Assembly: GCA_964587535.1 (NCBI GenBank)
Contig: CAZPMA010000001.1
Coordinates: forward strand, 13,153 to 77,152
Origin: an uncultured Bacteroidales bacterium
GTDB taxonomy: Bacteria; Bacteroidota; Bacteroidia; Bacteroidales; UBA12077
Reading direction: 5' to 3'
Length of the DNA: 64,000 nt
Shown piece after piece: positions 7,242-64,000 of the stretch; position 1 is the first letter of the stretch; each line of letters begins with the position of its first letter. Below the pieces are notes generated by a model, which did not search any database, was not told the origin of the DNA, and saw nothing but the letters and a program-made list of their open reading frames with translations. A program made the position numbers and the translations under genes.

Positions 7242-7242
7242 C

Positions 7243-7747: not shown

Positions 7748-8383
7748 TTGAAATACAAAGTACTTTTAATGAAAGAAAAATATATTAAAGATCTAAAAGA
7801 GATCAAAGACATTATGAATCGCTCAACCCGATTCATTTCCCTTAGTGGGCTTTCTGGTGTATATACCGGAATTATAGCACTAGCAGGGGCATTTTTAGCT
7901 TATAAAACCCTATTTAGGAGTCGAAATTATTTGGTTTATAATGCGCTTGACTTAAGTGATAAAGATTTACAAAATCTATTATTAATTGCAATTGGAACAT
8001 TAATTGTTTCCGTAGGGGCAGCACTCTTTTTTACTCGGCAAAAAACTAGAAAAAAGCAACAAAGTGTGTGGGATAATCAAACAAAACGATTGCTTATAAA
8101 TTTGTTAATACCATTAGCAACAGGTGGTGTTTTATGTTTAATGCTTCTGTTTAATGGTTTTGTGGGAATGGTATTACCTATAACTCTAATATTTTATGGT
8201 TTGGCTTTGGTAAATGCAAGCAAATATACATTGCCAGAAATTCGAAGTTTAGGATTAATCGAGATTTTACTCGGACTTATTGCTTTTCAATTTATAAGTT
8301 ATAGTCTTCTGTTTTGGGCATTTGGATTTGGGATTATCCAAATGGTTTACGGTATCGTTGTCCAAATAAAGTATAAGTTGTGA
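7748..8383 (+). CDS. Hypothetical multi-pass membrane protein (likely start ATG 7769)
   Basis: Several hydrophobic helices. Its stop overlaps the GTG start of the downstream regulator. Confidence 0.6.
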   Translation: MKYKVLLMKEKYIKDLKEIKDIMNRSTRFISLSGLSGVYTGIIALAGAFLAYKTLFRSRNYLVYNALDLSDKDLQNLLLIAIGTLIVSVGAALFFTRQKTRKKQQSVWDNQTKRLLINLLIPLATGGVLCLMLLFNGFVGMVLPITLIFYGLALVNASKYTLPEIRSLGLIEILLGLIAFQFISYSLLFWAFGFGIIQMVYGIVVQIKYKL

Positions 8384-8676
8384 AGGAAGTTTTAAAGAAT
8401 CTGGATAAAGCGTTTGAAAACAGGATTCGTTTGGTCATAATGTCAGCGCTGGTAGTAAACGACTCGCTGGATTTTAATGCCTTAAAAAAACTTTTAGATG
8501 TAACCGATGGAAATTTGGCAAGCCATTTAAAATCCCTGGAAAATAGTGAATACATTGTATTTACAAAGGAGTTTTTAGGCAGGAAGCCAAACACGACTTA
8601 CTTTGCAACTGAAAAAGGTAAAAAAGCTTTTACGAAGCATATCAAAGTCATCGAACAGTTATTAAACAATGGTTAA
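8380..8676 (+). CDS. Winged-helix transcriptional regulator (ArsR/MarR-like small wHTH)
   Basis: FENRIRLVIMSAL...FNALKKLLDVTDGNLASHLKSLENSEYI is the typical small wHTH family pattern. Confidence 0.7.
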   Translation: MKEVLKNLDKAFENRIRLVIMSALVVNDSLDFNALKKLLDVTDGNLASHLKSLENSEYIVFTKEFLGRKPNTTYFATEKGKKAFTKHIKVIEQLLNNG

Positions 8677-15558: not shown

Positions 15559-16014
15559 ATGTATAAGTTACAACAAATACAGCATATACCGGTTGATATA
15601 AATGAAGCTTGGAATTTTTTTTCATCACCAGATAATTTAAAGTTAATTACACCGGAGTATATGAACTTTAAAATATTAAACAGATCCGATGTTGGTGATA
15701 TGTATCCTGGTATGATTATAACTTATACAATTAGTCCACTATTTAACCTTTCGATTAAGTGGGCAACTGAGATAACTCAGTTAAAAGATCATAAGTATTT
15801 TATTGATAACCAGATAAAAGGGCCTTATAAAATATGGCATCATGAACATCATTTTAAGGAAACAGATAAAGGTGTTGAAATGCGTGATGTACTATTTTAC
15901 GAATTGTCATATGGTTTTTTAGGAAAATTGGTTTATAAGTTATTTGTAAAGAAAAGGGTAGAAGAAATATTCAATTATAGGTATAAGAAAATAAAAGAGC
16001 TTTTTAATAATTAA
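15559..16014 (+). CDS. SRPBCC (cyclase/dehydrase-like) ligand-binding protein
   Basis: Size and the AWNFFSSPDNLKLITP... pattern. Confidence 0.6.
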   Translation: MYKLQQIQHIPVDINEAWNFFSSPDNLKLITPEYMNFKILNRSDVGDMYPGMIITYTISPLFNLSIKWATEITQLKDHKYFIDNQIKGPYKIWHHEHHFKETDKGVEMRDVLFYELSYGFLGKLVYKLFVKKRVEEIFNYRYKKIKELFNN

Positions 16015-16028
16015 AAAGCTCTTTTTTC
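15993..16028. terminator. Terminator hairpin overlapping the stop codon
   Basis: 13-bp stem aaaagagcttttt/aaaaagctctttt followed by T residues. Confidence 0.7.
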
Positions 16029-16056
16029 AAAATCAAAATTACCTAATTTAAATACA

Positions 16057-16560
16057 CTATTGAAAATCTTTTAAACTATCCATTAGTTTCTTCCTTGTAA
16101 AGAAAATTCTACTTTTAACGGTACCTATTTTAAGATCTAATTCATCAGCAATTTCTTTGTATTTGTATCCCGATAAAAACATATTGAAAGGTTGTTTAAA
16201 TTCTTCTGGTAAACTTTCAATTTGTTTGGTTATCTCATATGTCGAATACTGATTGTCAGGTCTTTCAGGAGAAAAATCTCTTGTTAAATTAATAAAATAC
16301 TGATTTTTAGTAGTATCATTATGAGTATTCTCCTTTTGCTGTTTACGATAGTTATTAATAAAAGTATTTTTCATTATCGTAAAAGCCCAGGCTTTTAAGT
16401 TAGTATAGCCAATAAATTTATCTCTATTAGCTAAAGCTTTTAAGTAGGTTTCTTGTAAGAGATCCTGAGCTTCTTCTTTATTTAAAGTTAAACTCATCGC
16501 GAATCTTGAAAGTTTAGTTTCTAAACTTATTAATTGATGATTAAATTCTACTGCTGTCAT
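16057..16560 (-). CDS. ECF-type RNA polymerase sigma factor (start taken at ATG 16560; the listed ORF extends to 16620)
   Basis: Region 2 (AQDLLQETYLKA...AWAFTIMKNTFINNYRK) and region 4 (YKEIADELDLKIGTVKSRIFFTRKKL). Confidence 0.85.
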   Translation of the reverse strand: MTAVEFNHQLISLETKLSRFAMSLTLNKEEAQDLLQETYLKALANRDKFIGYTNLKAWAFTIMKNTFINNYRKQQKENTHNDTTKNQYFINLTRDFSPERPDNQYSTYEITKQIESLPEEFKQPFNMFLSGYKYKEIADELDLKIGTVKSRIFFTRKKLMDSLKDFQ

Positions 16561-51315: not shown

Positions 51316-51349
51316 AATTAATTTGTTTTAGTTCAACATTGTTTTATTG

Positions 51350-51379
51350 CTATGACGCCGCCTTTTTTTATCTGGTTAC
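51350..51379 (-). promoter_or_regulatory. ECF-type promoter GTAACC-N16-CGTCATAG (minus strand)
   Basis: Minus strand reads gtaaccagataaaaaaaggcggcgtcatag, about 35 nt upstream of the start at 51315. Confidence 0.6.
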
Positions 51380-51424
51380 ACTTTTTGCAAAAAAAAAATA
51401 GTGTAACTTGTCTTCTTATTTTAT

Positions 51425-51453
51425 GTAACCTGTTTTTAGTTTTTGCGTCATAG
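51425..51453 (+). promoter_or_regulatory. ECF-type promoter GTAACC-N15-CGTCATAG (plus strand, probably autoregulatory)
   Basis: gtaacctgtttttagtttttgcgtcatag, 17 nt upstream of the sigma-factor GTG start at 51470. Confidence 0.6.
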
Positions 51454-51469
51454 ATAAAAAAGAGATGGA

Positions 51470-52039
51470 GTGAAAGACGATAAACATTATATACAGCGCG
51501 TAATTAATGGAGATGTAAATGCTTTTAGCTATTTGGTTGAGATGCACAAAGGATTGGTTTATACAATTGCTCTTAGAATGCTAAAAAATACTGAAGATGC
51601 AGAAGAATTAGCTCAGGATACTTTTGTTAAGGCCTATAATTCCTTAAAAGATTTTAAATTTGAATCTAAATTCTCTACCTGGCTATATAGAATAACATAT
51701 AATGGAGCTATTTCCAAATTAAGAAAAAAACAAATTGAATTAGCTGATGTTGAAAGTGAGAATTTACCAGAGCATGAAGTTATTTCTGCTTTTAACTCAA
51801 TAAATGAACTTCAAAGAAATGAACAGAAAAAATATATAAATGAAGCAATTGAGCAATTAAAACAAGAAGATGCTTTATTAATTACATTATATTATTTTGA
51901 CGAAAGTACAATAGAAGAAATTAGTCAGATAACTCAACTTACTGTTTCAAACGTTAAGGTTAAATTACATAGAGCCAGGAAACGTTTTTATGATGAACTG
52001 AAATATATTTTAAAAGAAGAAGTGAGGGCTATATTATGA
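51470..52039 (+). CDS. ECF-type RNA polymerase sigma factor
   Basis: Region 2 (AEELAQDTFVKAY...FSTWLYRITYNGAISKLRK) and region 4 (IEEISQITQLTVSNVKVKLHRARKRF). Confidence 0.88.
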   Translation: MKDDKHYIQRVINGDVNAFSYLVEMHKGLVYTIALRMLKNTEDAEELAQDTFVKAYNSLKDFKFESKFSTWLYRITYNGAISKLRKKQIELADVESENLPEHEVISAFNSINELQRNEQKKYINEAIEQLKQEDALLITLYYFDESTIEEISQITQLTVSNVKVKLHRARKRFYDELKYILKEEVRAIL

Positions 52040-52452
52040 ACAATAAAAAATTAAATATTGACGAATACACTAAAAAACTAGTGCGAAAAGGAGATATTAA
52101 TCAACCCGGTCCTGATTTTACAAAAAGTGTGATGGGTCAAATACTAAAAGATCCTAAGGTTCAGGTAAGCCTTTTTACTGCAGATGATAAAAAAAGTAAC
52201 TGGTGGTTATTTATCTCCGTTGGGGTAATGTTTATTGCCTATCTTATCTATTATTTTATTAAAAATGGATTTAATATTAATTCGGGTAATGGTTTGTTGG
52301 AATCTTTTGGATTTGTAAAAGCTTTCTCTGATTTTTTCATTAATTTATTTAGCGAGTTAAGTATTTCTCCGTTTATTTTATTAGCCTTAATAGGGGTTGT
52401 GGTTCTAGTTATTCTTGATAAAACGATAGTTCGGTATTTATATTCAATTTAA
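52036..52452 (+). CDS. Membrane protein co-transcribed with the ECF sigma (candidate anti-sigma factor)
   Basis: 4-nt overlap with the sigma gene. Cytoplasmic N-terminus followed by two TM helices. Confidence 0.5.
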   Translation: MNNKKLNIDEYTKKLVRKGDINQPGPDFTKSVMGQILKDPKVQVSLFTADDKKSNWWLFISVGVMFIAYLIYYFIKNGFNINSGNGLLESFGFVKAFSDFFINLFSELSISPFILLALIGVVVLVILDKTIVRYLYSI

Positions 52453-52473
52453 AACATAAAAACATAATTAATT

Positions 52474-52509
52474 AAGGATCGTAAATTTTGCGATCCTTAT
52501 TTATTTTTT
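52474..52509 (+). terminator. Intrinsic terminator
   Basis: Stem aaggatcg/cgatcctt followed by a T-rich tract. Confidence 0.75.
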
Positions 52510-52548: not shown

Positions 52549-53106
52549 TTGAAATATAATAATAGCTTAATAAAAGGTATTCGTAATCAGGACCAATTTA
52601 TACTGCAGAAAATTTATTCTGATTATTTTCCTACTATTAGAAGATATATTATAGAAAATAATGGAAGCGAGCAGGATGCCAAGGATGTATTTCAAGATGC
52701 AATTATTATAATTTACAGAAAAATAAAAGAAGGAACATTTGAACTAACTTCATCGTTTAAATCATATATATATTCTGTGTGTCGTTTTTTGTGGTTAAAG
52801 GAATTGTCAAAAAATAAGGAAAGAATAGAAAAAACAAATAGTTATCTTGAATATGAAGAAGTTCCTGAAATATCTGAAGATGAGTTTGTAAAAAACGAAC
52901 AATATAAATTATATCAACATCATTTTAAAAGGTTAAGTAAAGATTGTCAAAAGGTATTGCAGTTGTTTTTAAATAAAGTTGCATTAAAAGATATTGCCGA
53001 AGAGTTAGGAATTGATAGTATGCAATATATAAAAAGAAAAAAGTTTAAATGTAAAGAGCAACTTGTAAAATATATCAAGAGCGATCCTAAATTTAAAGAA
53101 AAATAA
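52549..53106 (+). CDS. Sigma-70-family (ECF-like) sigma factor, TTG start
   Basis: Region 2-like DAKDVFQDAIIIIYRKI...YIYSVCRFLWLKELSKN and region 4-like LKDIAEELGIDSMQYIKRKKFKCKEQL. There is no ATG in the first 150 codons. Confidence 0.75.
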   Translation: MKYNNSLIKGIRNQDQFILQKIYSDYFPTIRRYIIENNGSEQDAKDVFQDAIIIIYRKIKEGTFELTSSFKSYIYSVCRFLWLKELSKNKERIEKTNSYLEYEEVPEISEDEFVKNEQYKLYQHHFKRLSKDCQKVLQLFLNKVALKDIAEELGIDSMQYIKRKKFKCKEQLVKYIKSDPKFKEK

Positions 53107-53840
53107 TGGAGAATAAGTTTGAACAAATAGAAAGTTACCTGGCAGGAGAGATGTCCATTAAAGAACAATTAGCTTTTGAAGAGCTGCTTCGAAAAGATAG
53201 GGAACTTATGCTCGAATTCAAACTTAGAAAAAGCATAAATAATGCTATTAATGAAAATGATGTGATGGAATTAAGAGAATCTTTATCTAATATTACCTCA
53301 ATTCCTGTTAAAAAGAAACCTATAATATTAAACCCATATATAATTACAACAGCTGCTGCCATAATTATATTTGCCATAGTTTCAAGTCTATATTTAAATA
53401 ATCGAAGTTATAATACAAATGACTTATTTAATCAATATTATAAGAAATATCCATCGATTATAAATTCTAGATCAATTGCAGAATCAGAAAAGGAGCAACT
53501 TTTTATTGATGTGTTTAACTATTATGATGATAATAATTATGAAAATGTTATCTTAACTATTAAAGAGCTTTTAAAAACCAATGATAACAATAGTTTATTG
53601 TTGTTTTATTTGTCGGTTAGTTTAATGGAGCAAAATGAACTAAAACAATCTGAACACTATTTAAAGCAATTGGTCAACAATAAAAACCATGTATTTTGGG
53701 AACAGTCACATTGGTATTTAGCATTAAATCTTATAAAACAGAATGATAAGTTTGAAGCAATAAGAATCTTAAAAGTTATTGTTGACGAAGACATGTCTAA
53801 AAGAAAGGAAGCAGAGAAATTAATTAAGATCTTGGAATAA
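53106..53840 (+). CDS. Anti-sigma-like single-pass membrane protein with a periplasmic TPR domain
   Basis: ATGA overlap with the sigma stop. N-terminal about 75-aa cytoplasmic helix domain, TM PYIITTAAAIIIFAIVSSLYL, and a TPR-like C-terminus. Confidence 0.65.
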   Translation: MENKFEQIESYLAGEMSIKEQLAFEELLRKDRELMLEFKLRKSINNAINENDVMELRESLSNITSIPVKKKPIILNPYIITTAAAIIIFAIVSSLYLNNRSYNTNDLFNQYYKKYPSIINSRSIAESEKEQLFIDVFNYYDDNNYENVILTIKELLKTNDNNSLLLFYLSVSLMEQNELKQSEHYLKQLVNNKNHVFWEQSHWYLALNLIKQNDKFEAIRILKVIVDEDMSKRKEAEKLIKILE

Positions 53841-56628
53841 ATTTCTTTATGAATATTGTTATTATAATTGATAACAATATAATACCCCCTAACAGAACAT
53901 ATATAAATTTATTTGAGAATAGGGCATCCTTATTACCAATTATAACATATCCAGACCAAAAATAAGGATGTGCATGCAATTGGTCAGAATTTTTAATAAA
54001 CTCAAGTTTAGACTTTTGTAATGATTTTGACTTGTTAAATCCTTTGATAAGGTTTCTATAATATTCAGCCATTAGGTTAACTCCCGATTTATCTTCTACC
54101 GACCATAAAGTCATAACAAGTGAAGGACAGCCAGCGTAAAAGAATCCTCTTGCCAGGCTAATAACTCCTTCGCCTTTATGCAATTTCCCGCTTCCGCTAT
54201 TACATGAACTTAATACCGCCATACGGCTGTTCAGCTTTAAGTTATATAATTCATAAGTATTTAAAAAATCATCTTCAAGGGAATCGGCAGTCTGCGAAAA
54301 TGCCATTTTAGAATACATCGGATTTTCATCATCCATTATGGTATGCATTGCTAAATGAAGAATATCGTAATTAGCTGCAACTTCTTTAAACCTTTTTTCA
54401 CTTGCTTTACTACCAATATATGTATTTCCTTTTGTTAACTCTGAAATTGCAATTGCTTCTTCCTTAATTCCTTTTAGTGGAAATAACTTTTCTCTGTATT
54501 GTTGTCGGATCGAAATAAAGTTACTATCCATTGTTTCAACAGGTTCATAGCTTGGTGCAAAAGCAGCTAAACTTTTTACCTTTTTTCTTTTATGATGTTT
54601 CTTATCAATTAAAAACCTAGCTGAATATGAATATGATATTGTATTGGTTTTAATTAAATATGGTAAATCCGTATAATTTAGTTTATCATATTTTTTAATA
54701 TCAGAAATAAGTGTTTCAAAAGGCAAATAAGCAAGTTCTCCATCTGGTATAATCGTAATGTGTTTTCTTTTTAGATGATGGTTAATTGGTTTAATGAGAA
54801 TGTTGTAAACATAATTAGATTTTTCTTGAAATAAATACAAATCATTTAATCCATGATACGAGAAATTGTTTTGGGAAAGTGATTTTAATAATAAATCAAG
54901 ATTAGAATAAAATGTGGTATCTATATTACTCTTATATAGATAAATATTATATTTTGAAATGATAAAAGAATAGATGGAACTATCATTAATGGAAAAATCA
55001 ACTAATACATCATTGAACTTAAGTGATTTCTGTAATTCTTTTAATTTTGTCTCTGAATTTGAGTATTTTAATGAGTAATAATCGTTAAAGTTATTTTCAA
55101 GGTAATTTATTAATTCATCGTGCTTTTGTTTTTTTTCAAACAGATATTTGTTCCAATAGGATAATTTATTTTCATCTGGAGTTTTTTTCTTATTTTCTTC
55201 ATAAATAAGTTCTTCGTAGTTCCAAATACTTTTTTCAAGTTCTTTTTCCAGATTTATTAGAGAGTCTGGTATTCCGCCAATATTTAATGCATAATTGTTT
55301 TTTATTGATTCAGTTAATACAGCAGATTTACTCGATTCACAATAATTAAAAGCTTTTTCAAGATATTTTTGCTCCTTAGTAATTTCATATAAACTATAAC
55401 TGGCATTTAAAGCCTTTGAAAAAGTTTCATTTTCATTATCAGCTAAAATAAGTTTACTTTCTTCACTAATATATCCTGATCTTATTTTATTAATTGCATC
55501 AATAGCCAGGTCATAGGTTTGTATACTTAAATTATATAAATCAATATTCTTATTTTTTGAAGCAATTTCTGTCAGCGTAATTGCTTTGTTTTTTATGGCA
55601 TTTAAATAATGTGTTTTAGAAAGGACATTATTTATATCGGGGTTTGTTTTAATATCATTATTCTCAAAATTTGGTGAAATTGCAATTAAAGATTTTTGAA
55701 AGTAGAACAGTGCACTATCTAGCATTTTATTTCTAAGAAAATGTTTTCCAAAATCATTATAGGCACCTGCAAGATAAGGGTGTTTCTCACCAAAGTTCAA
55801 TTTATAAATATTAATAGCAGATTCAAAATAGTCATAAGTATTCTCATTTTTATTTTGCTGTGATAGAAATACTGCATAATTTAAAAAAGTACCTGCACTT
55901 TTAATATTATTTGTTCCAAACTCGTTAACAGCATTTTTAATTGCTTCTCTATAATGCATGTCTGCTAATTTATAGTTTCTTAAGTTATTATAGCAAATGG
56001 CAAGATTTCCTAATGTTGTATATTTACTATTTGGATTTAAAATAATGCTCTTTTTATAGTGTTGTATAGCAGTTGAATAGTCAGATGTGTTTTTATAAAT
56101 ATTTCCTAAGTTATTATATGCTATTGAAATATATTTTTTGTTTTTTATAGTATCACGGTTATATATATTATAAGCCATAAGCAGGTAGTCTTTTGACTTA
56201 GAGTAATCTTTTTGTTTACTGTAAATATTAGCCTTATTTGCATATACATATGCAGTGAGTATTTCATTTCTTTTATTTAAATAAATGGTTTCTGCTTTAT
56301 TATAACAATCAATTGCTTCTGAATATTTTCCATTTATTTTATAGATAATTCCTAGACTTTGATAGGCGTTAGCTAAAGCAATAGAGTCGATGTGGTTTAA
56401 GTTTTCATAAAGTTTAACTGCAAATTGACTGTAAAAAAGAGCACTATCAATAATCCCAGTTTTACCAAAATCCATTCCCTTCTGATAATATAATTCAGCT
56501 AATTTATGATCTTTAATATCATTCCTTTCATTAGCTGCAGTATAAAAAACAGATATAAATAAAATTGTTAAGTAAGTAAGTACATTTTTAAAAAACATAA
56601 TTGTTATTTTGGTAACGTTTTTATACAT
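53824..56628 (-). CDS. TPR-repeat CHAT-domain (caspase-like) protein with an N-terminal signal/anchor and a C-terminal TM helix
   Basis: Many TPRs in the N-terminal 400 aa. CHAT His/Cys dyad contexts ILHLAMHT and AVLSSCNSGSG. C-terminal FIYVLLGGIILLSIIITIFI. Confidence 0.85.
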   Translation of the reverse strand: MYKNVTKITIMFFKNVLTYLTILFISVFYTAANERNDIKDHKLAELYYQKGMDFGKTGIIDSALFYSQFAVKLYENLNHIDSIALANAYQSLGIIYKINGKYSEAIDCYNKAETIYLNKRNEILTAYVYANKANIYSKQKDYSKSKDYLLMAYNIYNRDTIKNKKYISIAYNNLGNIYKNTSDYSTAIQHYKKSIILNPNSKYTTLGNLAICYNNLRNYKLADMHYREAIKNAVNEFGTNNIKSAGTFLNYAVFLSQQNKNENTYDYFESAINIYKLNFGEKHPYLAGAYNDFGKHFLRNKMLDSALFYFQKSLIAISPNFENNDIKTNPDINNVLSKTHYLNAIKNKAITLTEIASKNKNIDLYNLSIQTYDLAIDAINKIRSGYISEESKLILADNENETFSKALNASYSLYEITKEQKYLEKAFNYCESSKSAVLTESIKNNYALNIGGIPDSLINLEKELEKSIWNYEELIYEENKKKTPDENKLSYWNKYLFEKKQKHDELINYLENNFNDYYSLKYSNSETKLKELQKSLKFNDVLVDFSINDSSIYSFIISKYNIYLYKSNIDTTFYSNLDLLLKSLSQNNFSYHGLNDLYLFQEKSNYVYNILIKPINHHLKRKHITIIPDGELAYLPFETLISDIKKYDKLNYTDLPYLIKTNTISYSYSARFLIDKKHHKRKKVKSLAAFAPSYEPVETMDSNFISIRQQYREKLFPLKGIKEEAIAISELTKGNTYIGSKASEKRFKEVAANYDILHLAMHTIMDDENPMYSKMAFSQTADSLEDDFLNTYELYNLKLNSRMAVLSSCNSGSGKLHKGEGVISLARGFFYAGCPSLVMTLWSVEDKSGVNLMAEYYRNLIKGFNKSKSLQKSKLEFIKNSDQLHAHPYFWSGYVIIGNKDALFSNKFIYVLLGGIILLSIIITIFIKKFIPRS

Positions 56629-56806
56629 GGGAACTTTTAAAAGGTTTTAAATATTAAAAAATAATGTTCATATTATCAGCTTATTAGCGTAAAAATATCA
56701 AAAAAGTAAAAAAAAAATCAAATTCAGGGGTCACCTTTTTATTAGTTCCGGAATAAATAGGTGAAAGCTTATTAAACCAAACAAAAATATTTAAAATAAA
56801 AGAACT

Positions 56807-56977
56807 ATGAAAACGCTTAAAGGCATATTTGAAAATAAGACATCAAATAAATCGATGAATACATTTACAGAAACGTTAGATATTAAAAGTATGTTGTTGA
56901 TAAAAGGAGGAGATGGAGATGATGATGATAAAGACTCATGGCCTCCAGCAAGTGATCCTTCAAATACAAGTAACTAG
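56807..56977 (+). CDS. Unannotated 56-aa peptide with a double-glycine leader (bacteriocin/pheromone-type precursor)
   Basis: MKTLKGIFENKTSNKSMNTFTETLDIKSMLLIKGG|DGDDDDKDSWPPASDPSNTSN. Hydrophobic residues sit at -4, -7 and -12 relative to GG. It has its own strong terminator, and a C39 exporter lies in the same cluster. Confidence 0.65.
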   Translation: MKTLKGIFENKTSNKSMNTFTETLDIKSMLLIKGGDGDDDDKDSWPPASDPSNTSN

Positions 56978-57015
56978 TACTCCCTTTCGATTCAAATATA
57001 CGTTCTAAACAGTAA

Positions 57016-57050
57016 TGATCAACTCAAAGCCCTTTGGGTTGGTCATTTTT
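57016..57050 (+). terminator. Intrinsic terminator after the GG-leader peptide gene
   Basis: 13-bp stem (tgatcaactcaaa/tttgggttggtca, two G-U pairs), loop gccc, then TTTTT. Confidence 0.8.
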
Positions 57051-57075: not shown

Positions 57076-57822
57076 ATGCATATGAACCTTGAAACTATTG
57101 AAAAGTATATTGATGGTGAATTAGCCGGAAAAGAATTACTGAATTTTGAAGAATTAATTTCAACTAATTCAAGTTTAAATCGAGATTATCGATTGAGTCT
57201 CGAAATTAATAAGTCTATTGTCGAAGATGATGTAATGCAGCTTCGGGAAACCCTTGATTATATGTATAATGAGAATGTTAAAATTAAACGTTCACCAAAT
57301 ACATTTGCCAAACGTAAAGTATTTTATGCTGCTGCCTCTATTGCTCTATTATTAGCTATAGGTGGTTTTTATAAAAATTTTACGGACGGTAAAATGTCTG
57401 GCTCATCTATTTATGATAAATATTACCAGCCTTACGAAGTATCTGTTACATACAGATCAGGAAACACAGAAGTTGATAAGGTATTTCTTTCTGCATTGCA
57501 AAAATATGAAGAACGCGAGTATGAAAAAGCAATGGTTCTTTTTGAACAATTATTAGAAATTAAAAAGAATGATATGGCATTAAACCTTTATTCCGGTATA
57601 ACATATATGGAAGAAAAAGAATACCAAAACGCATCAAATTCATTTAATAACATTATTGATAACAAGAATAATTTATTTGTTGAGCAAGCCAAATGGTATT
57701 TATCATTATGCTACGTAATTACTGAAGATAAAGAAAATGCAATTACACTTTTAAATGAATTAGTGCAAGAAGAAAGTTACTATAAAAAAGATGCAAAACA
57801 TATTTTACGAGAAATAAACTAG
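57076..57822 (+). CDS. Paralogue of the 53106 TM-TPR anti-sigma-like protein
   Basis: N-terminus aligns by eye (IEKYIDGELAGKELLNFEELI...DDVMQLRETL versus IESYLAGEMSIKEQLAFEELL...NDVMELRESL). It has a TM helix and a TPR C-terminus. Confidence 0.7.
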   Translation: MHMNLETIEKYIDGELAGKELLNFEELISTNSSLNRDYRLSLEINKSIVEDDVMQLRETLDYMYNENVKIKRSPNTFAKRKVFYAAASIALLLAIGGFYKNFTDGKMSGSSIYDKYYQPYEVSVTYRSGNTEVDKVFLSALQKYEEREYEKAMVLFEQLLEIKKNDMALNLYSGITYMEEKEYQNASNSFNNIIDNKNNLFVEQAKWYLSLCYVITEDKENAITLLNELVQEESYYKKDAKHILREIN

Positions 57823-57828
57823 TAGCTT

Positions 57829-58572
57829 ATGAGACAGAGTATTAGGCCACCAAAAACGTTAAAAATGAATGATAATGCAATTGAAGTCGAAAAGATTTCA
57901 TTTTTATCACACATTTCTCATGGAATAAGAACACCGCTAAATGCAATTATGGGATTTTCTAAACTTCTAAATTTTAAAAATAATAGTCTTAGCAAGCAAA
58001 AAAGGTATATCAGGGAAATTCTTAAAGGAAGTAATTTGTTATTGCAATTTGTTGATAATGTGGTTGACCTTAGTCTGTTAGAAAATAACAAATATGCTTT
58101 AAACATTAAAAAGTTCAATGTTAATCAATTAATATGGGATTTTATTGAGTACTTCTACGATAAAAAGAATGAAGAAAAGATTTCTGATCTTAACCTTATG
58201 TTAGTTTGGGATGATGAAGTTAAGGACCTTGAGATGCTATCAGATTCATTTTTAGTAAAAAAATGCTTACAGTTACTTTTTAATATTATAACTACAAGAT
58301 ATTCAGAGAAAAATTTCGAATTAGGATATTCAATCTATAATGAGAATATGTTAAAAATTTTTATGCGACCATCAAACAAAAACCTGGAGAATGTTCAAAT
58401 TGAAAAGAACTTCTTTTTGTATGATGTGGATACAAATAATTCGTTTGAGATGTTTAACTATCAGGTTCTTTGTAGAAGCATTAACCTTTTAAATGGAGAT
58501 TTAAATTTGTTTTCAGAAGACAATGAGTATTGGTTTGCAATACCCATCAATTTAAACTATAAAATAAATTAA
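57829..58572 (+). CDS. Sensorless HisKA-domain protein with a degenerate ATPase domain
   Basis: H-box FLSHISHGIRTPLNAIMGFSKLL lies about 25 aa from the N-terminus. No TM segment. No recognisable G1 (DxGxG) or G2 (GxGLG) box downstream. Confidence 0.7.
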   Translation: MRQSIRPPKTLKMNDNAIEVEKISFLSHISHGIRTPLNAIMGFSKLLNFKNNSLSKQKRYIREILKGSNLLLQFVDNVVDLSLLENNKYALNIKKFNVNQLIWDFIEYFYDKKNEEKISDLNLMLVWDDEVKDLEMLSDSFLVKKCLQLLFNIITTRYSEKNFELGYSIYNENMLKIFMRPSNKNLENVQIEKNFFLYDVDTNNSFEMFNYQVLCRSINLLNGDLNLFSEDNEYWFAIPINLNYKIN

Positions 58573-58573
58573 T

Positions 58574-58927
58574 ATGAGAGATTTTAATATATGTATACCG
58601 TCAACCGAAGGTAAAGAAGTGTTGAACTGCAATGAAATAATGTATGCAGAAGCAGAACATGATTATTCAAGAATCGTTTTTAAAGACGAAGGAGTAATTG
58701 AAGTATTGTTAACAATAACTGAATTGGAATACTTTTTATCGAAAAGGGGATTTTTCCGATTTAATAATACGACACTGGTTAATTTAAGATATGTTCAGGT
58801 AATATTTCCTTTAGATGCATCGATAGTTATACTGGAAAATGGTGAAGAGATTTCTGTTAGTAAGGAAAGAAGAGAAGATTTGTTTGAAGGTTTAAAAGAA
58901 GTTTTTGAATTACAAGAAGCGGTTTAA
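58574..58927 (+). CDS. Stand-alone LytTR DNA-binding domain protein (1 of 3)
   Basis: 117 aa. Contains ...IMYAEAEHDYSRIVF...LEYFLSKRGFFRFNNTTLVNLRYV. No receiver domain. Confidence 0.75.
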   Translation: MRDFNICIPSTEGKEVLNCNEIMYAEAEHDYSRIVFKDEGVIEVLLTITELEYFLSKRGFFRFNNTTLVNLRYVQVIFPLDASIVILENGEEISVSKERREDLFEGLKEVFELQEAV

Positions 58928-58981
58928 TTTCAATAATGTTATTTTAAAAAAAATTTATTAACCACCCAATATTATAAAGTT

Positions 58982-59317
58982 ATGGAATCAGTTAGTTTAA
59001 AACCCACAATTGAAAAAATAACTAACCTCAAAAATGTTATTTATTTTGAATCAATAGGAGAGTTTACAAAAATACATTTCTATAATGGTACTAAGAACTT
59101 AGTTGATGAAGATATAAGTTATATTGAAAGTTTACTTCCTAAAAATAAGTTCTTTAAAATTCACGATCTGTTTATTATCAATCTTGATTACCTAAAACTG
59201 ATTAAGGGGCAAGCAAATAAAAATGCCAGGTTACACCATAATCTGGAAATTGCAATTGATCCGAATAGGTACAATGAGCTAATCGTGTTTATGAAAGAAG
59301 ATTATGTGGTGTGGTAA
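58982..59317 (+). CDS. Stand-alone LytTR DNA-binding domain protein (2 of 3)
   Basis: 111 aa. Contains VIYFESIGEFTKIHF...IESLLPKNKFFKIHDLFIINLDYL. Confidence 0.8.
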   Translation: MESVSLKPTIEKITNLKNVIYFESIGEFTKIHFYNGTKNLVDEDISYIESLLPKNKFFKIHDLFIINLDYLKLIKGQANKNARLHHNLEIAIDPNRYNELIVFMKEDYVVW

Positions 59318-59364
59318 ATAAAAAGCACTAATAAAAACCTTGTTATAACCCAAAATAATTATTA

Positions 59365-59712
59365 ATGAAAAGAAAAGTAGTTCTATTTGATGATGAAGAA
59401 AATATTGTATTAAAAAAAATCGAAGAAATTGTATATTTTGAATCATTAGGCAAAAAAACAAAAACAATTTGTTGTGAACGTGATGAATACATCATTAAAG
59501 AAAGTTTATCAACAGTGGAAGAAAAATTGCCTGATAGTACATTTTTTAAGATACATAAGTCATTTATTATAAATATTGATTGCATTAAAGGAATCAATCT
59601 GGATAATAATAAGAAGGTACTTCTTAATAATGGGATACAATTAAATGTAGCTCACCGTAAATATCGAGAATTTTTAGAGTTTGTAAGATGTAGGTTTGAA
59701 TTCTGGCAGTAA
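59365..59712 (+). CDS. Stand-alone LytTR DNA-binding domain protein (3 of 3)
   Basis: 115 aa. Contains IVYFESLGKKTKTIC...VEEKLPDSTFFKIHKSFIINIDCI. Confidence 0.8.
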   Translation: MKRKVVLFDDEENIVLKKIEEIVYFESLGKKTKTICCERDEYIIKESLSTVEEKLPDSTFFKIHKSFIINIDCIKGINLDNNKKVLLNNGIQLNVAHRKYREFLEFVRCRFEFWQ

Positions 59713-59756
59713 TGTTAATTCTTTATTGTTTATAAATTTTAATCAAAATTTTCACT

Positions 59757-59798
59757 ACGAAAAGCTTAATATTATTGACGAAAGTGATAAATATTAAT
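59757..59798 (+). promoter_or_regulatory. Candidate LytTR-type direct repeat (ACGAAA(A/G) + AT-rich arm, 21-bp register)
   Basis: acgaaaagcttaatatta at 59757 and acgaaagtgataaatatta at 59778. A TAnnTTTG-like box (tagttttg) sits at 59872-59879, and the peptide gene starts at 59950. Confidence 0.25.
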
Positions 59799-59949
59799 AC
59801 AGAATTGAATTTTTTTATATTTCCTATTTCTAAGTAGTGTTTTATTAAAATAAAATTTAAAACAGTTTTGTTAGTTTTGGTATGTCGAGCTCGAAGGCGT
59901 AAACCGAAAAGCCTAAATAGAGTAGGAACAATTTTAATTAATTATAATT

Positions 59950-60141
59950 ATGAAAAAAATAGAAAGTATCAAGAATGATCTATTTAAAAAGTTTGAAGAT
60001 GATCAAATAATTGACATGAGTGAATGCAAAGGAAAAGGAAGATATAGTACAGGATTAGGTTATAGATATGACCAGTTATGTGAAGATTTTTTGCGTACAT
60101 ATGAAAATGGTGATTATCGTTTAGAACTTGAATTTAGATAG
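59950..60141 (+). CDS. 63-aa small protein, candidate RiPP precursor for the downstream ATP-grasp/SPASM enzymes
   Basis: MKKIESIKNDLFKKFEDDQIIDMSECKGKG-RYSTGLGYRYDQLCEDFLRTYENGDYRLELEFR. First gene of the biosynthetic run and followed by a hairpin. Confidence 0.5.
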   Translation: MKKIESIKNDLFKKFEDDQIIDMSECKGKGRYSTGLGYRYDQLCEDFLRTYENGDYRLELEFR

Positions 60142-60227: not shown

Positions 60228-61304
60228 ATGAAAAAAAGTTTTTTAACAGCTATTTTATTTTTACTTTTTATTAATATTTATTCGAGAAGTAATATTAATA
60301 AAGATTATAAGAAATATTACGAGTTTATCAATAGTGCTGAGTTACTGATCGTAGAAAATGATTTTTTTAATGCTCATCAGATTTATTCTGAAGCATTTAG
60401 GCAATGGCCAAAGGCTCCTTCGATTGATTATTATAATGCATTACTATGTGCTGTGAAATCAAACATTTATTCTGAAGCATTTAGTTATTTAGAAATATTA
60501 GCAAAAAAGGGTTGGGAATTAGACTATTTTTTAGAAAATCCATACCTTTCCGAGTTAAGAAAAGAAAGCGAATGGGAAAGATTTGTAGAAAATTATCCCA
60601 AATTTAATCAATTATATACAGAATCGTTAGATACTGAGCTGTTAAATGAATTAGCTAATATGTTAATTAAAGATCAATCTCTTGCAAAGTCGAATAGGTA
60701 TAATGAATATTTAAAAACAGTGATAAGTAATGCTGACCGAATTTATGAACTAATCTATAAAAACCAAACCAATAATATACATTTTGGTTCGGTATATTCG
60801 ATCTTGTATAGCCCATTCCCTGTTGTTCTATTGAGACATTATTGTGGGATTTATAATGAAGTACAGAAAGGGTATATTGATGTGTCAAAAATAATTAATG
60901 ATACATTGATGTTAGTAAATTTAGAAGATGCTTTATTAAAAGAAATTGAGAATGGAAATCTCTCACCACTTGTTTATGACTTAGCTGTTACGTATAGTAA
61001 TGATGCAAATCTTTATGGGAATGATTTATTTTTAGAGGTTGATACCGTTATTATTAGAAGAAAGATAGAAATTGAAGAGGAAAAACAAATTAATGAAAAG
61101 CGTTTAAAGATTGGTCAAGAACCAATTAGAGATTACATAAAAAAGTTGGAATTTAAGAGCAAGAAAATTGATGAAAATTTAGAAAAATATTTTTTTAAAT
61201 TCAGGATATCAAGTTCTTATACTTTAATTAAAGGTAATCCAGAAAGATTGAAAAGTTTTATAGAAGACAGATTAAATGAAGGATGGGTAAGAGTTACACC
61301 TTAA
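60228..61304 (+). CDS. Secreted hypothetical protein (TPR-like helical N-terminal part)
   Basis: Signal-like MKKSFLTAILFLLFINIYS. Its 3' end overlaps the ATP-grasp gene start by 22 nt. Confidence 0.6.
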   Translation: MKKSFLTAILFLLFINIYSRSNINKDYKKYYEFINSAELLIVENDFFNAHQIYSEAFRQWPKAPSIDYYNALLCAVKSNIYSEAFSYLEILAKKGWELDYFLENPYLSELRKESEWERFVENYPKFNQLYTESLDTELLNELANMLIKDQSLAKSNRYNEYLKTVISNADRIYELIYKNQTNNIHFGSVYSILYSPFPVVLLRHYCGIYNEVQKGYIDVSKIINDTLMLVNLEDALLKEIENGNLSPLVYDLAVTYSNDANLYGNDLFLEVDTVIIRRKIEIEEEKQINEKRLKIGQEPIRDYIKKLEFKSKKIDENLEKYFFKFRISSSYTLIKGNPERLKSFIEDRLNEGWVRVTP

Positions 61305-62284
61305 TAATTACAAATAAATTTGATTATTGTACAGATAGTATTATAAAATGGTTAAAGTTTTACAATCAAAGTTTTATAATAATTGATACAAATAAAAAAG
61401 TACAAATCACAAAAATTCTTATTAGTAATAAAGAAAAGAGAATTGAGTTATTAATCGATAATAAAAATATCGAATTAAAACAAATTGATTCTGTTGTTTT
61501 TTGGAAAGGAAGAATCCAATTCGACATACCAATAGTTCAATTAGAAAATAAAAAAGGAGATTACAAAAGAGAAGTGGATAGGTTCCTTAAAAGAGAATTA
61601 GAGACTATAACTAATTTAATTTATGATGATTTAAATAAAAAGAAAATTTTTGGTTTATGTATAACTAAGAACCCGAATAAACTTATATTATTAAATCTTG
61701 CAAAAGAAGTCGGATTGAATATTCCCGAAACAACAATTTCTTCAGTATCTAAAATTATTAAAGATAAAGTTAATGATACGGTATCAATTACCAAACCAAT
61801 ACAAGAGATATTTAATTATAGAGAAAGAGATAGAGCTTATGCAACCTTCACACAAATTATAAGTGTCAGAAAGGATCAAAGTTGGGATAAAATAATCTTT
61901 CCTTCTTTAATACAGAATAATATTGAGAAAAAATATGAATTAAGAATATTCTATTTTAATGACGAATTTTATACAATGGCTATATTTTCCCAATCTGATC
62001 AAAAAACTAGTACAGATTTTAGAGATTACAATTATGAAAAGCCCAATAGAATGGTTCCTTTTTTATTACCAAATGACATTAAAAAGAAATTAAGAACTTT
62101 AATAGCTCAAATAGGATATAATTCATGTTCAACTGATATAATTGTTAATAAGGATGGTGATTATATCTTTTTAGAAACTAATCCTTTAGGTCAGTTTGAT
62201 TTGGAATCATTGGTTTGTAATTATAAAATTGAAAAAAAGATTGTTGAATATTTAAAAAATAAAAGCTTGTGTGCAATAATATAG
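61283..62284 (+). CDS. ATP-grasp peptide maturase (MvdC/D-like; grasp-with-spasm type)
   Basis: N-terminus LIITNKFDYCTDSIIKWL. ATP-grasp core NK..LLNLAKEVGLNIPET, ELRIFYF, DFRDYN and FLETNPLGQFD. Confidence 0.8.
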   Translation: MGKSYTLIITNKFDYCTDSIIKWLKFYNQSFIIIDTNKKVQITKILISNKEKRIELLIDNKNIELKQIDSVVFWKGRIQFDIPIVQLENKKGDYKREVDRFLKRELETITNLIYDDLNKKKIFGLCITKNPNKLILLNLAKEVGLNIPETTISSVSKIIKDKVNDTVSITKPIQEIFNYRERDRAYATFTQIISVRKDQSWDKIIFPSLIQNNIEKKYELRIFYFNDEFYTMAIFSQSDQKTSTDFRDYNYEKPNRMVPFLLPNDIKKKLRTLIAQIGYNSCSTDIIVNKDGDYIFLETNPLGQFDLESLVCNYKIEKKIVEYLKNKSLCAII

Positions 62285-62425: not shown

Positions 62426-63532
62426 ATGGTTTATAAACTCTTTTCTAATTGTATTCCTGTTAAGGGATATAGAAGAAGTATTATTGTAGATACTCAAAGA
62501 GAGAATTATTATATTATTCCTAATGGATTATATGAAATACTGGTAAATGATACATTTTATTCAATTAAAGATATAAAAAGTAAAATTATGTTTGAATATC
62601 ATGATATTATAGACGAATACTTTGAGTATTTAAAAAATAGGGATTTGATTTTTAGTTGTGATATTAATGAAGTTAAATATTTTCCAAACTTGGATTTATG
62701 TTGGGATGAACCACATACTATTATAAATTCTATTATAGATGTAAATAAATATAGTCAACATAATTTCAAAGAAATATTTATACAACTAGATGAATTATTA
62801 TGTAAACACCTTGAAATAAGGTTTTTTAATTATGTGAAGTCAACTGATTTATATGAAATTATTGCAAAAACAGATAATAAATCTTTTCAAAGTATTGATA
62901 TAATTATGCCCTATAATAAAGAGTTTTCTATATTCGATTTAAATGAGATTTTAGATAAGTTCAAAAGGGTATCAAGCATTGTTATTTATAATTCTCCAAA
63001 TATTATTACCAACAAAGGAATAGAAAATTGTGATAATCACATTTTTTTTATTAAAAATGAGATTTCAGATAAAACAAATTGTGGAGTAATTAAAACATCT
63101 TCATTTTCTATGAACTTAAGTTTTTTCTGTGAGGCACAAGAATATAACACTTGCTTAAATAAAAAGTTGTGTATTGATACAGATGGAAATATAAAGAATT
63201 GTCCAAGTATTAATAAGTCTTATGGGAAAATAGAAAATATAGCTTTAAAAGATATTATAAATAAAAAAAAATTTCAATCTTATTGGCATATATCAAAAGA
63301 TCAAATTGAAGTGTGTAATTTATGCGAGTACAGATATATGTGTAATGATTGCAGAGCTTACGTAAAGGTTAATGACAATTTATACTCTCAACCTTTGAAA
63401 TGTAATTATAATCCATTTATTGCTAAGTGGGAAGGTGAAAAAGGGTACATTCCTATTGAAAATTTTGGATCTTATAATACTCAAGGTAAGTATATAGTTA
63501 ATTTAGAATATATGAAAGAGATAGATATATAA
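62426..63532 (+). CDS. SPASM-domain peptide maturase lacking the radical-SAM CxxxCxxC motif
   Basis: C-terminus C..C(x4)G(x4)C ... CNLCEYRYMCNDC ... KCNYNP, a 7-Cys SPASM pattern. No CxxxCxxC anywhere. The position where it is expected reads VNKYSQHN. Confidence 0.75.
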   Translation: MVYKLFSNCIPVKGYRRSIIVDTQRENYYIIPNGLYEILVNDTFYSIKDIKSKIMFEYHDIIDEYFEYLKNRDLIFSCDINEVKYFPNLDLCWDEPHTIINSIIDVNKYSQHNFKEIFIQLDELLCKHLEIRFFNYVKSTDLYEIIAKTDNKSFQSIDIIMPYNKEFSIFDLNEILDKFKRVSSIVIYNSPNIITNKGIENCDNHIFFIKNEISDKTNCGVIKTSSFSMNLSFFCEAQEYNTCLNKKLCIDTDGNIKNCPSINKSYGKIENIALKDIINKKKFQSYWHISKDQIEVCNLCEYRYMCNDCRAYVKVNDNLYSQPLKCNYNPFIAKWEGEKGYIPIENFGSYNTQGKYIVNLEYMKEIDI

Positions 63533-63577: not shown

Positions 63578-64000
63578 ATGTCCTTCCCATTTTATAAACA
63601 ACTCGATGCTATGGATTGTGGCCCTTCGTGTTTACGGATGGTTGCAAAACATTATGGTAAAAATTATACCTTACAAACCCTTCGCGATAAAAGCTATATA
63701 ACCCGCGAAGGCGTTTCAATGCTAGGAATTAGCGATGCTGCAGAATCGATAGGTTTTCGAACAATGGGTGTTCGCATTACATTTGATCAACTTATGGAAG
63801 AAGCTCCGTTACCCTGTATCGCGCATTGGAAGCAAAATCATTTTGTTGTTGTTTACGAAATTAAAAAGGCTCGTAAGGGTAACATTATAGTGAAAGTTTC
63901 TGATCCTGCAAGAGGATTAATAAATTTTACCAAAGAAGAATTTCAACAGGGATGGGCCAATACAATCGAAGATGGCGAGAATAAAGGTTTATGCCTTTTG
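63578..64000 (+). CDS. Peptidase-C39-domain ABC exporter, N-terminal fragment (runs off the window)
   Basis: MSFPFYKQLDAMDCGPSCLRMVAKHYGKNYTL... (catalytic Cys context) ...CIAHWKQNHFVVV. Open to base 64000. Confidence 0.85.
   Translation, partial: MSFPFYKQLDAMDCGPSCLRMVAKHYGKNYTLQTLRDKSYITREGVSMLGISDAAESIGFRTMGVRITFDQLMEEAPLPCIAHWKQNHFVVVYEIKKARKGNIIVKVSDPARGLINFTKEEFQQGWANTIEDGENKGLCLL

Follow-up and report, generated by a model that had tools for sequence, protein, structure and literature searches.

Three consecutive genes for stand-alone LytTR proteins (LytA, LytB and LytC) in a 64,000-nucleotide stretch of contig CAZPMA010000001.1 from an uncultured Bacteroidales bacterium (the window) belong to a regulatory cassette that is conserved and spans about 7 kb. 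Comparison with related loci shows that this cassette stands before an interchangeable payload of genes for peptides that are made ribosomally and modified after translation (RiPPs), at a fixed chromosomal site of an uncultured Bacteroidales/Marinilabiliales lineage. The cassette is apparently undescribed, since we found no description of it, or of LytTR-controlled RiPP clusters in Bacteroidota, in the literature that we searched; each of its parts has a known relative, in the LytTR regulatory systems (LRS) and blp/com loci of streptococci, in DdvA and in RetS. We consider it somewhat probable that a membrane and periplasmic sensing cassette here feeds a LytTR cascade, which switches on a swappable RiPP island.

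The initial annotation had identified the three open reading frames (ORFs) as LytTR proteins, and all of them lie at the positions given there and score well above the gathering score of the Pfam LytTR family (PF04397, 22.6 bits):

58574..58927, + strand: LytA, 117 aa, Pfam LytTR 54.9 bits over residues 16-105; core orthogroup, without a receiver (REC) domain
58982..59317, + strand: LytB, 111 aa, Pfam LytTR 37.4 bits over residues 14-85; optional orthogroup, REC-less
59365..59712, + strand: LytC, 115 aa, Pfam LytTR 74.1 bits over residues 13-105; REC-less

The LytTR domain spans nearly the full length of each protein. All three are soluble proteins without a hydrophobic segment, and two of them, including LytC, can be aligned with the solved LytTR domains 3D6W and AgrA. 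Their description as clearly diverged paralogues was borne out by pairwise identities of 16-29%, and so was the reported lack of a receiver domain in the cluster. Pfam and NCBIfam scans of every ORF between 49.6 and 64 kb yielded no REC domain, nor did the Pfam gene lists within 10 kb on either side in seven related loci. In phmmer searches with CheY and Spo0F against all ORFs of the window, the sole match was ORF 1246-3846, about 54 kb from the cluster (866 aa, Spo0F E = 7e-13), which is the window's only receiver-domain protein. With a length of 111-117 aa and no N-terminal REC domain carrying a phospho-acceptor aspartate, the three proteins fall outside the AgrA/ComE/BlpR type of response regulator.

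Three genes directly precede LytA, in an order that is constant across the related loci while the payload differs:

56807..56977, + strand: WPP peptide gene, 56 aa; double-glycine (GG) leader (...LLIKGG), followed by an acidic core DGDDDDKDSWPPASDPSNTSN
57076..57822, + strand: TM-TPR-2, with one transmembrane (TM) helix at residues 81-100; TPR domain at the C-terminus
57829..58572, + strand: HisKA-only protein, 247 aa, soluble; Pfam HisKA E = 1.7e-13

The HisKA-only family comprises about 90 proteins, all from metagenome-assembled genomes of Bacteroidales/Marinilabiliales, and its 88 full-length members (232-262 aa) have HisKA (PF00512) as their sole Pfam domain. We compared the neighbourhoods of seven family members at 39-51% identity and of eleven further metagenomic loci (L015-L025), which were the only true family members in a metagenome scan with the HisKA-only profile that otherwise returned mostly ordinary kinases sharing the H-box; a contig scan with the ATP-grasp protein of the payload alone gave only three loci. 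Where contigs allow the comparison, LytA comes after HisKA-only in 17/17 loci and HisKA-only after TM-TPR-2 in 16/16, and the WPP gene lies upstream in 12/12. The full conserved series begins with a mechanosensitive channel, an M64 peptidase, DUF6249, the sigma factor sigma-1 and a 138-aa TM protein, continues with sigma-2, TM-TPR-1 and a CHAT-TPR gene on the opposite strand, and ends with one or two copies of the WPP peptide gene, TM-TPR-2, HisKA-only and LytA. The genes found behind this series are as follows:

Window and L022: grasp-with-spasm
L006: class I lanthipeptide genes
L010: radical SAM (rSAM)/SPASM with three Cys-rich precursors
L013: LanM, plus YcaO/rSAM
L014: YcaO with two rSAM genes and LanC
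L008, L012 and L019: only a C39 ABC exporter, a bAvd-like gene and HlyD after the LytTR genes

By sequence comparison, LytA, LytB and LytC are three old, distinct and non-equivalent orthogroups with different distributions. LytA, with the non-canonical motif FFRFN, is present in every cassette, and its sequences are 40-79% identical among loci and only 15-25% identical to LytB and LytC. The other two are optional, the combinations met being LytA alone, LytA with LytC, and all three: LytB (110-111 aa across loci) has orthologues in L006, L010, L014 and L015, and LytC (115-122 aa, with the canonical motif FFKIHKSFIIN) in 11 related loci, including most of those that carry a payload. In a search of 1.84 billion representatives, LytA formed a narrow clade of about five clusters at E < 1e-16, all of 114-118 aa; the matches beyond this clade were REC-LytTR regulators of the usual type, about 250 aa long, and various short LytTR proteins. 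Receiver-less LytTR proteins as such are therefore not rare, and it is the LytA clade that is specific to the cassette.

The genes directly downstream of LytC have the composition of a complete grasp-with-spasm RiPP cluster, as judged from the pair of TIGR04192 and TIGR04193 matches above their trusted cut-offs:

59950..60141, + strand: payload precursor peptide, 63 aa, directly behind the DUF805b motif; its orthologue in L003 precedes the same maturases (E = 3e-32)
60228..61304, + strand: 358-aa protein without family; orthologue in L003 (E = 5e-148)
61283..62284, + strand: grasp-with-spasm ATP-grasp maturase, TIGR04192, 254 bits against a cut-off of 230
62426..63532, + strand: grasp-with-spasm SPASM-domain maturase, TIGR04193, 312.7 bits against a cut-off of 175
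63578..64000, + strand, running off the window: N-terminus of a C39-peptidase ABC exporter, whose translation holds QLDAMDCGPSCL

In related loci, full-length C39/ABC_membrane/ABC_tran genes that match this exporter start occupy the equivalent position. Neither the 358-aa protein nor the small ORFs (the WPP peptide, the 63-aa precursor and a 51-aa ORF) had a match in Pfam or NCBIfam. A more distant Bacteroidales grasp-with-spasm locus, L005, has a protein of similar size at the place of the 358-aa protein, with no phmmer match between them at E <= 1e-3. A gene of the bAvd/23S-rRNA-IVP type, encoding a four-helix bundle, regularly lies between the C39 ABC exporter and an HlyD/AprE-like gene (L008 13707-14078, L010 20347-20721, L012 13942-14316).

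Alignment of the loci downstream of their last LytTR gene revealed a conserved box GTCAAAAAATA, followed by three TACGAAAA direct repeats. In the window, these precede promoter-like elements and an Rfam motif:

59741..59806, + strand: candidate LytTR operator, a AATCAAAATTT box followed by the repeats TACGAAAAG (59756), GACGAAAGT (59777) and TACAGAATT (59798)
59872..59879, + strand: candidate Bacteroidetes-type -7 box TAGTTTTG, from the sequence and the alignment of related loci
59894..59928, + strand: DUF805b (Rfam RF02914), 51.3 bits (gathering score 35.6), E = 2e-12; 5' of the payload precursor

The period is exactly 21 bp, made up of a 9-bp repeat and a 12-bp spacer, which is the geometry reported for LytTR regulators (PMC6193735), and the exact pattern ACGAAA-N15-ACGAAA has its single occurrence in the 64-kb window at this place. 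In a relaxed scan, all nine LytC-bearing loci with at least 0.8 kb of downstream sequence had the triple repeat, and none of five LytA-only loci did (Fisher's exact p ~5e-4 by hand calculation, for loci that are not independent). The triple repeat is thus the likely site of LytC, and we infer that LytC is a payload-specific activator acting on it. Two loci, L013 and L018, contain the triple repeat twice, each copy before a precursor operon. The distant locus L005 likewise encodes a stand-alone 116-aa LytTR protein, four ACCACTTAT-type repeats at 21 bp, a GG precursor and an ATP-grasp/SPASM pair; a truncated duplicate of its LytTR gene, with the same repeats, lies before a second precursor and an rSAM gene (8044-8470 and 15799-16110).

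The sequence TAnnTTTG is the Bacteroides promoter consensus, and the Bacteroidetes-type -33/-7 elements begin about 35 bp past the third repeat. A scan for sigma-70 consensus promoters was uninformative in this AT-rich Bacteroidota DNA (100 sites against 84 expected). DUF805b follows about 88 bp past the triple repeat, before the precursor ATG at 59950, and stands at the same place in L003 (923-958, 47.2 bits) and L006 (12136-12171, 42.9 bits), with sub-threshold copies in L013 (two) and L018. As it is located downstream of the TAnnTTTG box, it is more likely the 5' leader of the payload precursor gene; a sigma-2 promoter, which we also considered, was rejected on account of conserved blocks only about 12 nt apart. 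The 4-bp stem of the motif is broken in an L013 copy, and DUF805b may perhaps be a sequence signal in the DNA rather than a structure signal in the RNA. Further Rfam matches, to RAGATH-30 and to snoRNAs, were weak and far below their gathering scores, and we discarded them.

LytB shows a detail that may bear on DNA binding: it has an acidic residue (D/E) at the position aligned with AgrA N201, a DNA-contact residue in the AgrA structure. Moreover, one of the three repeats deviates from ACGAAA in all four loci with LytA, LytB and LytC, whereas most loci with LytA and LytC have three perfect copies. These observations hint weakly at a modulatory or heteromeric role of LytB.

The HisKA-only protein, whose gene is separated by 6 nt from TM-TPR-2 and whose stop codon lies 1 nt before the LytA start, carries only one of the two parts of a sensor histidine kinase in recognizable form. 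Its HisKA part, corresponding to the dimerization and histidine phosphotransfer (DHp) domain, has the conserved histidine: the H-box FLSHISHGIRTPLN and H31 are invariant in 44 family members, with a glycine where kinases have Glu or Asp. The catalytic part is missing as a recognizable HATPase_c domain, which had no match at E <= 1 in this protein and none in the 88 family members; the G1 (DxGxG) and G2 (GxGxG) boxes are lost, with F(I/V)RP and NSFDYFN in their place. An AlphaFold2 (AF2) model (pLDDT 78.5) contains a DHp hairpin and an alpha/beta domain resembling the catalytic and ATP-binding (CA) domain, with a disordered loop at the place of the ATP lid, and its best Foldseek matches in the PDB were kinase-region chains of RetS (E = 3e-13, TM 0.6-0.7), then GacS, ZraS, CusS and DivL. 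Judging by this model, HisKA-only is a soluble, RetS-like pseudokinase core. RetS (PDB entry 7N0E) and DivL are histidine-kinase cores that signal without kinase activity, and by analogy with the shared DHp and CA-like fold of RetS a kinase-independent action through protein contact would be expected of HisKA-only. It differs from RetS in being a stand-alone soluble core of 247 aa, without sensor, TM and receiver domains, and in having kept the H-box but lost G1 and G2.

Three genes further upstream belong to the same cassette as TM-TPR-2:

52549..53106, + strand: sigma-2, of the extracytoplasmic function (ECF) type; NCBIfam TIGR02937 sigma70-ECF 61.8 bits against 42.9, Pfam Sigma70_r2
53106..53840, + strand: TM-TPR-1, single-pass and anti-sigma-like, with residues 72-98 as TM helix; gene start and sigma-2 stop overlap (TAATG)
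53824..56628, - strand: TPR-CHAT caspase-like protease; Pfam CHAT E = 3.3e-57 and several TPR families

Sigma-2 is conserved in eight related loci. Before its gene come a hairpin of the terminator type (52473-52499) and a TAnnTTTG box like that of housekeeping promoters, with no autoregulatory motif, and sigma-2 is therefore probably not autoregulated. The overlap of its stop codon with the TM-TPR-1 start indicates that TM-TPR-1 is translationally coupled to it. Upstream, the SigW-like sigma-1 gene at 51470 is preceded by an ECF promoter, TGTAACC-N15-CGTCATA, within 51316-51469, which is conserved in related loci, and is coupled to the gene of the 138-aa two-TM protein (52036-52452), probably its anti-sigma.

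TM-TPR-2 had been described as a single-pass TM-TPR protein and a paralogue of the protein coupled to sigma-2, pointing to a duplicated sensor architecture. We found the same: the protein has a single hydrophobic helix, ends in a TPR domain, and is 29% identical to TM-TPR-1 (E = 5e-32). Its supposed place at the head of the gene run had to be given up, as the conserved 56-aa ORF of the WPP peptide (56807-56977) comes first. There is no sigma gene beside TM-TPR-2; its orthologues, about 100 in number and about 248 aa long, carry no annotation other than that of TPR proteins. The N-domains of the two paralogues are 45% identical, compared to 24% for the remainder. N-domains of the family match the anti-sigma zf-HC2 domain in 6/24 cases, of which one, a TM-TPR-1 copy in L014, exceeds the gathering score (26.4 against 22.2 bits). 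Zinc ligands are absent from the N-domains of both window proteins, and a profile of the N-domain found nothing significant among PDB sequences (best match Nif11, E = 0.26). By homology, the TM-TPR N-domain is anti-sigma-like.

In the AF2 model of TM-TPR-2 (pLDDT 73.5), a four-helix N-domain is followed by the TM helix, a low-confidence loop and a confident eight-helix TPR domain, which is predicted to be periplasmic and resembles small peptide-binding TPR modules (BamD, SycD/PcrH, CHIP, YbgF). The residues R127-S128 (window 57454-57459), located in a flexible YRSG juxtamembrane loop, are invariant, and an equivalent Arg-Ser is kept in the TM-TPR-1 family as well. Proteases of clan CD often take Arg at P1, and the shared Arg-Ser loop is a plausible candidate for a protease cleavage site.

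TPR-CHAT has two hydrophobic segments, an N-terminal signal-like helix (8-28) and a C-terminal anchor (902-934), because of which its bulk is predicted to be periplasmic, along with the TPR domains of both TM-TPR proteins. Its His motif HLAMH (around residue 758) and its Cys motif LSSCNSG (around residue 809) are both intact, and in every long related locus its gene and the WPP gene point away from each other. The closest parallel is DdvA of Myxococcus xanthus, a single-pass anti-sigma whose fused periplasmic TPR-CHAT part has been proposed to cleave the protein's juxtamembrane linker ahead of RseP (PMC11506125). The DdvS/DdvA pair parallels the cassette in an ECF sigma paired with a single-pass protein, anti-sigma in the one and putatively so in the other, and in a periplasmic TPR-CHAT with a His-Cys dyad, proposed for the site-1 step (PMC11506125), and in craspase the TPR-CHAT protein Csx29 likewise acts on an anti-sigma-like partner. 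The architecture is not that of DdvA, where protease and anti-sigma are one polypeptide: in Pfam scans, the CHAT-TPR protein (53824-56628) had no anti-sigma domain and the TM-TPR proteins no CHAT domain, so that the protease of the cassette stands alone, with its anchor at the C-terminus. The anti-sigma-like proteins of the cassette further differ from DdvA in carrying a small TPR domain of their own, in forming two paralogues and in an N-domain without zinc ligands, and the output is a RiPP cluster reached through LytTR factors, not CBASS/CRISPR. The CHAT/ECF parallels with DdvA had also raised the idea of an anti-phage defence island, which we rejected, the payload genes in every locus being RiPP maturases and exporters.

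A further component of the cassette is the WPP peptide, together with the conserved DNA on either side of its gene:

56727..56776, + strand: P_WPP motif, GGGGTYACC-TTTT..TTCCGGAAY..ATARGTGR..ATTAA, from the locus alignment; upstream of the WPP gene
57028..57050, + strand: weak terminator-like hairpin with T-run between the WPP gene and TM-TPR-2, kept in L006 and L010

A word-indexed homologue search with the peptide was too insensitive (three relatives only), and we extracted ORFs from the loci instead. The 12 copies obtained from related loci have a leader of the form MKTLKN.F...KK.IN.FS...ML.IKGG, a D/E-rich core with WPP (in one case WAPP) and a variable tail; unlike the payload precursors, the WPP peptide has no Cys. 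It is present whatever the type of payload and is the sole GG peptide in those maturase-less loci that keep the exporter, which makes it a component of the cassette and a natural substrate of the exporter. That it is also an extracellular signal is the most economical guess, and only a guess, with the WPP peptide as the best candidate for this part.

P_WPP is unique in each locus and precedes 13/15 WPP gene copies, including those of LytA-only loci, with a constant gap of 21 nt from TYACC to ATARGTG. As a strict ECF promoter it fits in part only, its GTYACC being like the -35 element of sigma-1 and its spacing to a CGT-like -10 element different from that of the sigma-1 promoter; candidates for reading it are sigma-2, LytA or both. 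A conserved block ACTCCCTTTCGATTCAAATATACGTTCT lies between the WPP stop codon and the hairpin (56978-57027; also in L006 and L010), and no terminator-like site was found between TM-TPR-2 and LytC. In L003, a motif of the P_WPP type (GGGGGTTACC...GGAAC...ATAGGT; 505-832) occurs before an 82-aa HTH-like gene, which lies directly upstream of DUF805b and the grasp-with-spasm precursor; in L013, a similar small HTH_11 gene follows a triple repeat (12000-12260).

The annotation had likened the cluster to the REC-less LytTR systems of Streptococcus mutans, HdrRM and BrsRM (PMC6193735). The likeness extends to a soluble REC-less LytTR protein, an adjacent membrane-protein gene, 9-bp repeats with a 12-bp spacer and an output of bacteriocin genes, matched here by the RiPP cluster directly downstream; it does not extend to autoregulation. 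The positive autoregulation of an LRS operon goes through a pair of direct repeats of about 9 bp in its own promoter, which are spaced by 11-13 bp and located 4-11 bp before the -35 element (PMC6193735). Since the LytTR-type repeats of the window, with their 12-bp spacer, are found only before the payload and not before the regulators' operon, this defining feature is absent: the region upstream of the regulators (56629-56806) has a dyad-type motif and no direct repeats with a 21-bp period. The membrane protein, too, is different, being an anti-sigma-type single-pass TPR protein unrelated to inhibitors of the HdrM/BrsM type. The cassette further differs in that it always includes the pseudokinase as a third partner, holds between one and three LytTR orthogroups and has repeats in threes before the payload, at about 35 bp from the -33 box; it also adds a GG-leader peptide, a TPR-CHAT protease and an ECF sigma pair, and its host is a Gram-negative Bacteroidales. 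LRS-like operons of Bacteroides (PMC6193735) offer a case within the phylum of receiver-less LytTR regulators with direct repeats, of 11 bp, at the promoter, yet these regulators have N-terminal TM segments and pair with NfeD/DUF2154, whereas LytA, LytB and LytC are soluble and belong to another cassette.

In layout, the nearest counterpart is the streptococcal blp locus (BlpC/BlpAB/BlpHR/BlpS), which unites conserved regulators and a hypervariable bacteriocin payload in one locus. With blp and com (ComCDE) the cassette shares a GG-leader peptide and C39 ABC transporter and LytTR outputs on direct repeats, and with blp a LytTR-only protein in the locus, BlpS (PMC8545106). It differs from both in having neither an HPK10 kinase nor a REC-LytTR response regulator; sensing would instead fall to TPR-CHAT, to a TPR protein with an anti-sigma-like N-domain and to a kinase-dead histidine-kinase core.

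In the mechanism that we favour, LytC would bind the three TACGAAAA repeats and activate the operon of payload precursor and maturases, possibly together with LytB, which, with an acidic residue in a position of DNA contact, may be a modulator and not itself a DNA binder. LytA, HisKA-only and TM-TPR-2, whose genes are always adjacent and tightly spaced (gaps of 6 nt and 1 nt), would on this account form a membrane-linked unit parallel to the pair of sigma-2 and TM-TPR-1. The periplasmic TPR-CHAT, as the likely site-1 protease, would cut both TM-TPR proteins at their shared Arg-Ser loop, and this cleavage would free sigma-2 and the HisKA-only/LytA module. The C39 ABC transporter found at the end of every locus would export the WPP peptide, which is, of the components, the best candidate for an extracellular signal. 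We offer tentatively, as a rather unlikely extension, that all this amounts to a peptide-based circuit akin to quorum sensing, in which the periplasmic TPR domains, TPR-CHAT or both sense the exported, unmodified WPP peptide, cleavage by CHAT frees the ECF sigma and a pseudokinase-bound LytTR protein, and LytC with the triple repeat switches on the payload. If true, this would represent a type of receptor, with protease-gated anti-sigma paralogues, and a mode of LytTR control without described counterpart.

Several observations weigh against the favoured mechanism. The N-domain is the best-conserved part between TM-TPR-1 and TM-TPR-2, so that a sigma-like partner is favoured for both over a LytTR or HisKA partner; the N-domain of the window TM-TPR-2 itself has no zf-HC2 match in Pfam. 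P_WPP, as the sole DNA motif conserved across all cassettes, is dyad-like and not a direct repeat, and could equally be a sigma-2 promoter, its GTYACC resembling the ECF -35 element GTAACC of the sigma-1 promoter. No target was identified for LytA, and LytA-only loci share no motif between LytA and the ABC exporter that could be its operator. Two loci on short contigs, L017 and L025, have LytC without detected repeats, and the distance of about 35 bp from the repeats to the putative -33 box exceeds the 4-11 bp reported for LRS promoters. Finally, the WPP peptide is without family match, and that it acts as a signal is pure inference. The main rival, a possibility to be taken seriously though we doubt it, builds on some of these points: in a pure transcriptional cascade, TM-TPR-2 would be a second, feedback anti-sigma for sigma-2, which after inactivation of TM-TPR-1 would transcribe the operon of WPP peptide, TM-TPR-2, HisKA-only and LytTR genes from P_WPP; the LytTR proteins would act by being made, and HisKA-only would be an accessory. 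The similarity of the N-domains and the zf-HC2 matches of their orthologues agree with this, as do the housekeeping-type promoter of sigma-2, which lacks an autoregulatory motif and therefore implies a target promoter elsewhere, the presence of a unique P_WPP with its ECF-like GTYACC in all cassette types, and the uninterrupted run from TM-TPR-2 to LytC. The cascade leaves unexplained why the triad of TM-TPR-2, HisKA-only and LytA is invariant and tightly coupled in 17 loci and why a kinase unable to bind ATP has an invariant H-box, and it has to contend with the spacing of the P_WPP elements, which misfits the -35/-10 spacing of the sigma-1 promoter, and with the hairpin and T-run between the WPP gene and TM-TPR-2.

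Two further explanations confine themselves to the LytTR proteins. One or two of these, most likely LytB and possibly LytA, might compete or repress in the manner of streptococcal BlpS until LytC out-competes them, which we regard as unlikely. A precedent exists in the gallocin regulation of S. gallolyticus, where the LytTR-only BlpS is described as an anti-activator (PMC8545106), and both the D/E of LytB at the AgrA N201 position and the deviating repeat of the loci with all three LytTR genes would fit, but the deviation is confounded by the relatedness of these loci and there is no REC-LytTR activator present to antagonise. The other, which we find very doubtful, follows the LRS model: TM-TPR-2 would be a membrane inhibitor by which at least one of the REC-less LytTR proteins is directly sequestered, until a signal sets the bound proteins free to turn on their own operon and the bacteriocin genes. 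Soluble REC-less LytTR proteins beside a membrane-protein gene, the invariant linkage of TM-TPR-2 and LytA, LytTR-type repeats at the target promoter and the bacteriocin-like output cluster are all in line with it. Against this stand the anti-sigma type of TM-TPR-2, outside the families of LRS inhibitors, the pseudokinase gene that always lies between TM-TPR-2 and LytA, and the P_WPP dyad motif in place of a direct-repeat pair before the regulators' own operon; moreover, many cassettes lack LytB and LytC, which leaves only LytA as a possible sequestered partner.

For the silent RiPP clusters of uncultured Bacteroidales, the favoured mechanism provides a testable regulatory logic, consisting of a candidate activator (LytC), an operator (3 x TACGAAAA) and a promoter/leader unit, which together could switch on payloads as diverse as lanthipeptides, YcaO/rSAM products and graspetides. 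The REC-less LytTR proteins of a Gram-negative phylum would be embedded in a sensing apparatus unlike that of the streptococcal LRS. The cassette is a counterpart of DdvA whose protease and anti-sigma are encoded by separate genes; with candidates for both the cleavage loop and the peptide ligand, it opens a way to ask how anti-sigma systems with TPR-CHAT are triggered. The orphan Rfam motif DUF805b gains a genomic role, as the probable leader of RiPP precursor genes, and the arrangement of conserved regulators and variable payload mirrors the pneumococcal blp locus, suggesting a convergent organisation of loci for bacteriocin warfare. Outside the cassette, the window also contains a tmRNA gene at 6847-7244 (Rfam RF00023, 170.7 bits).

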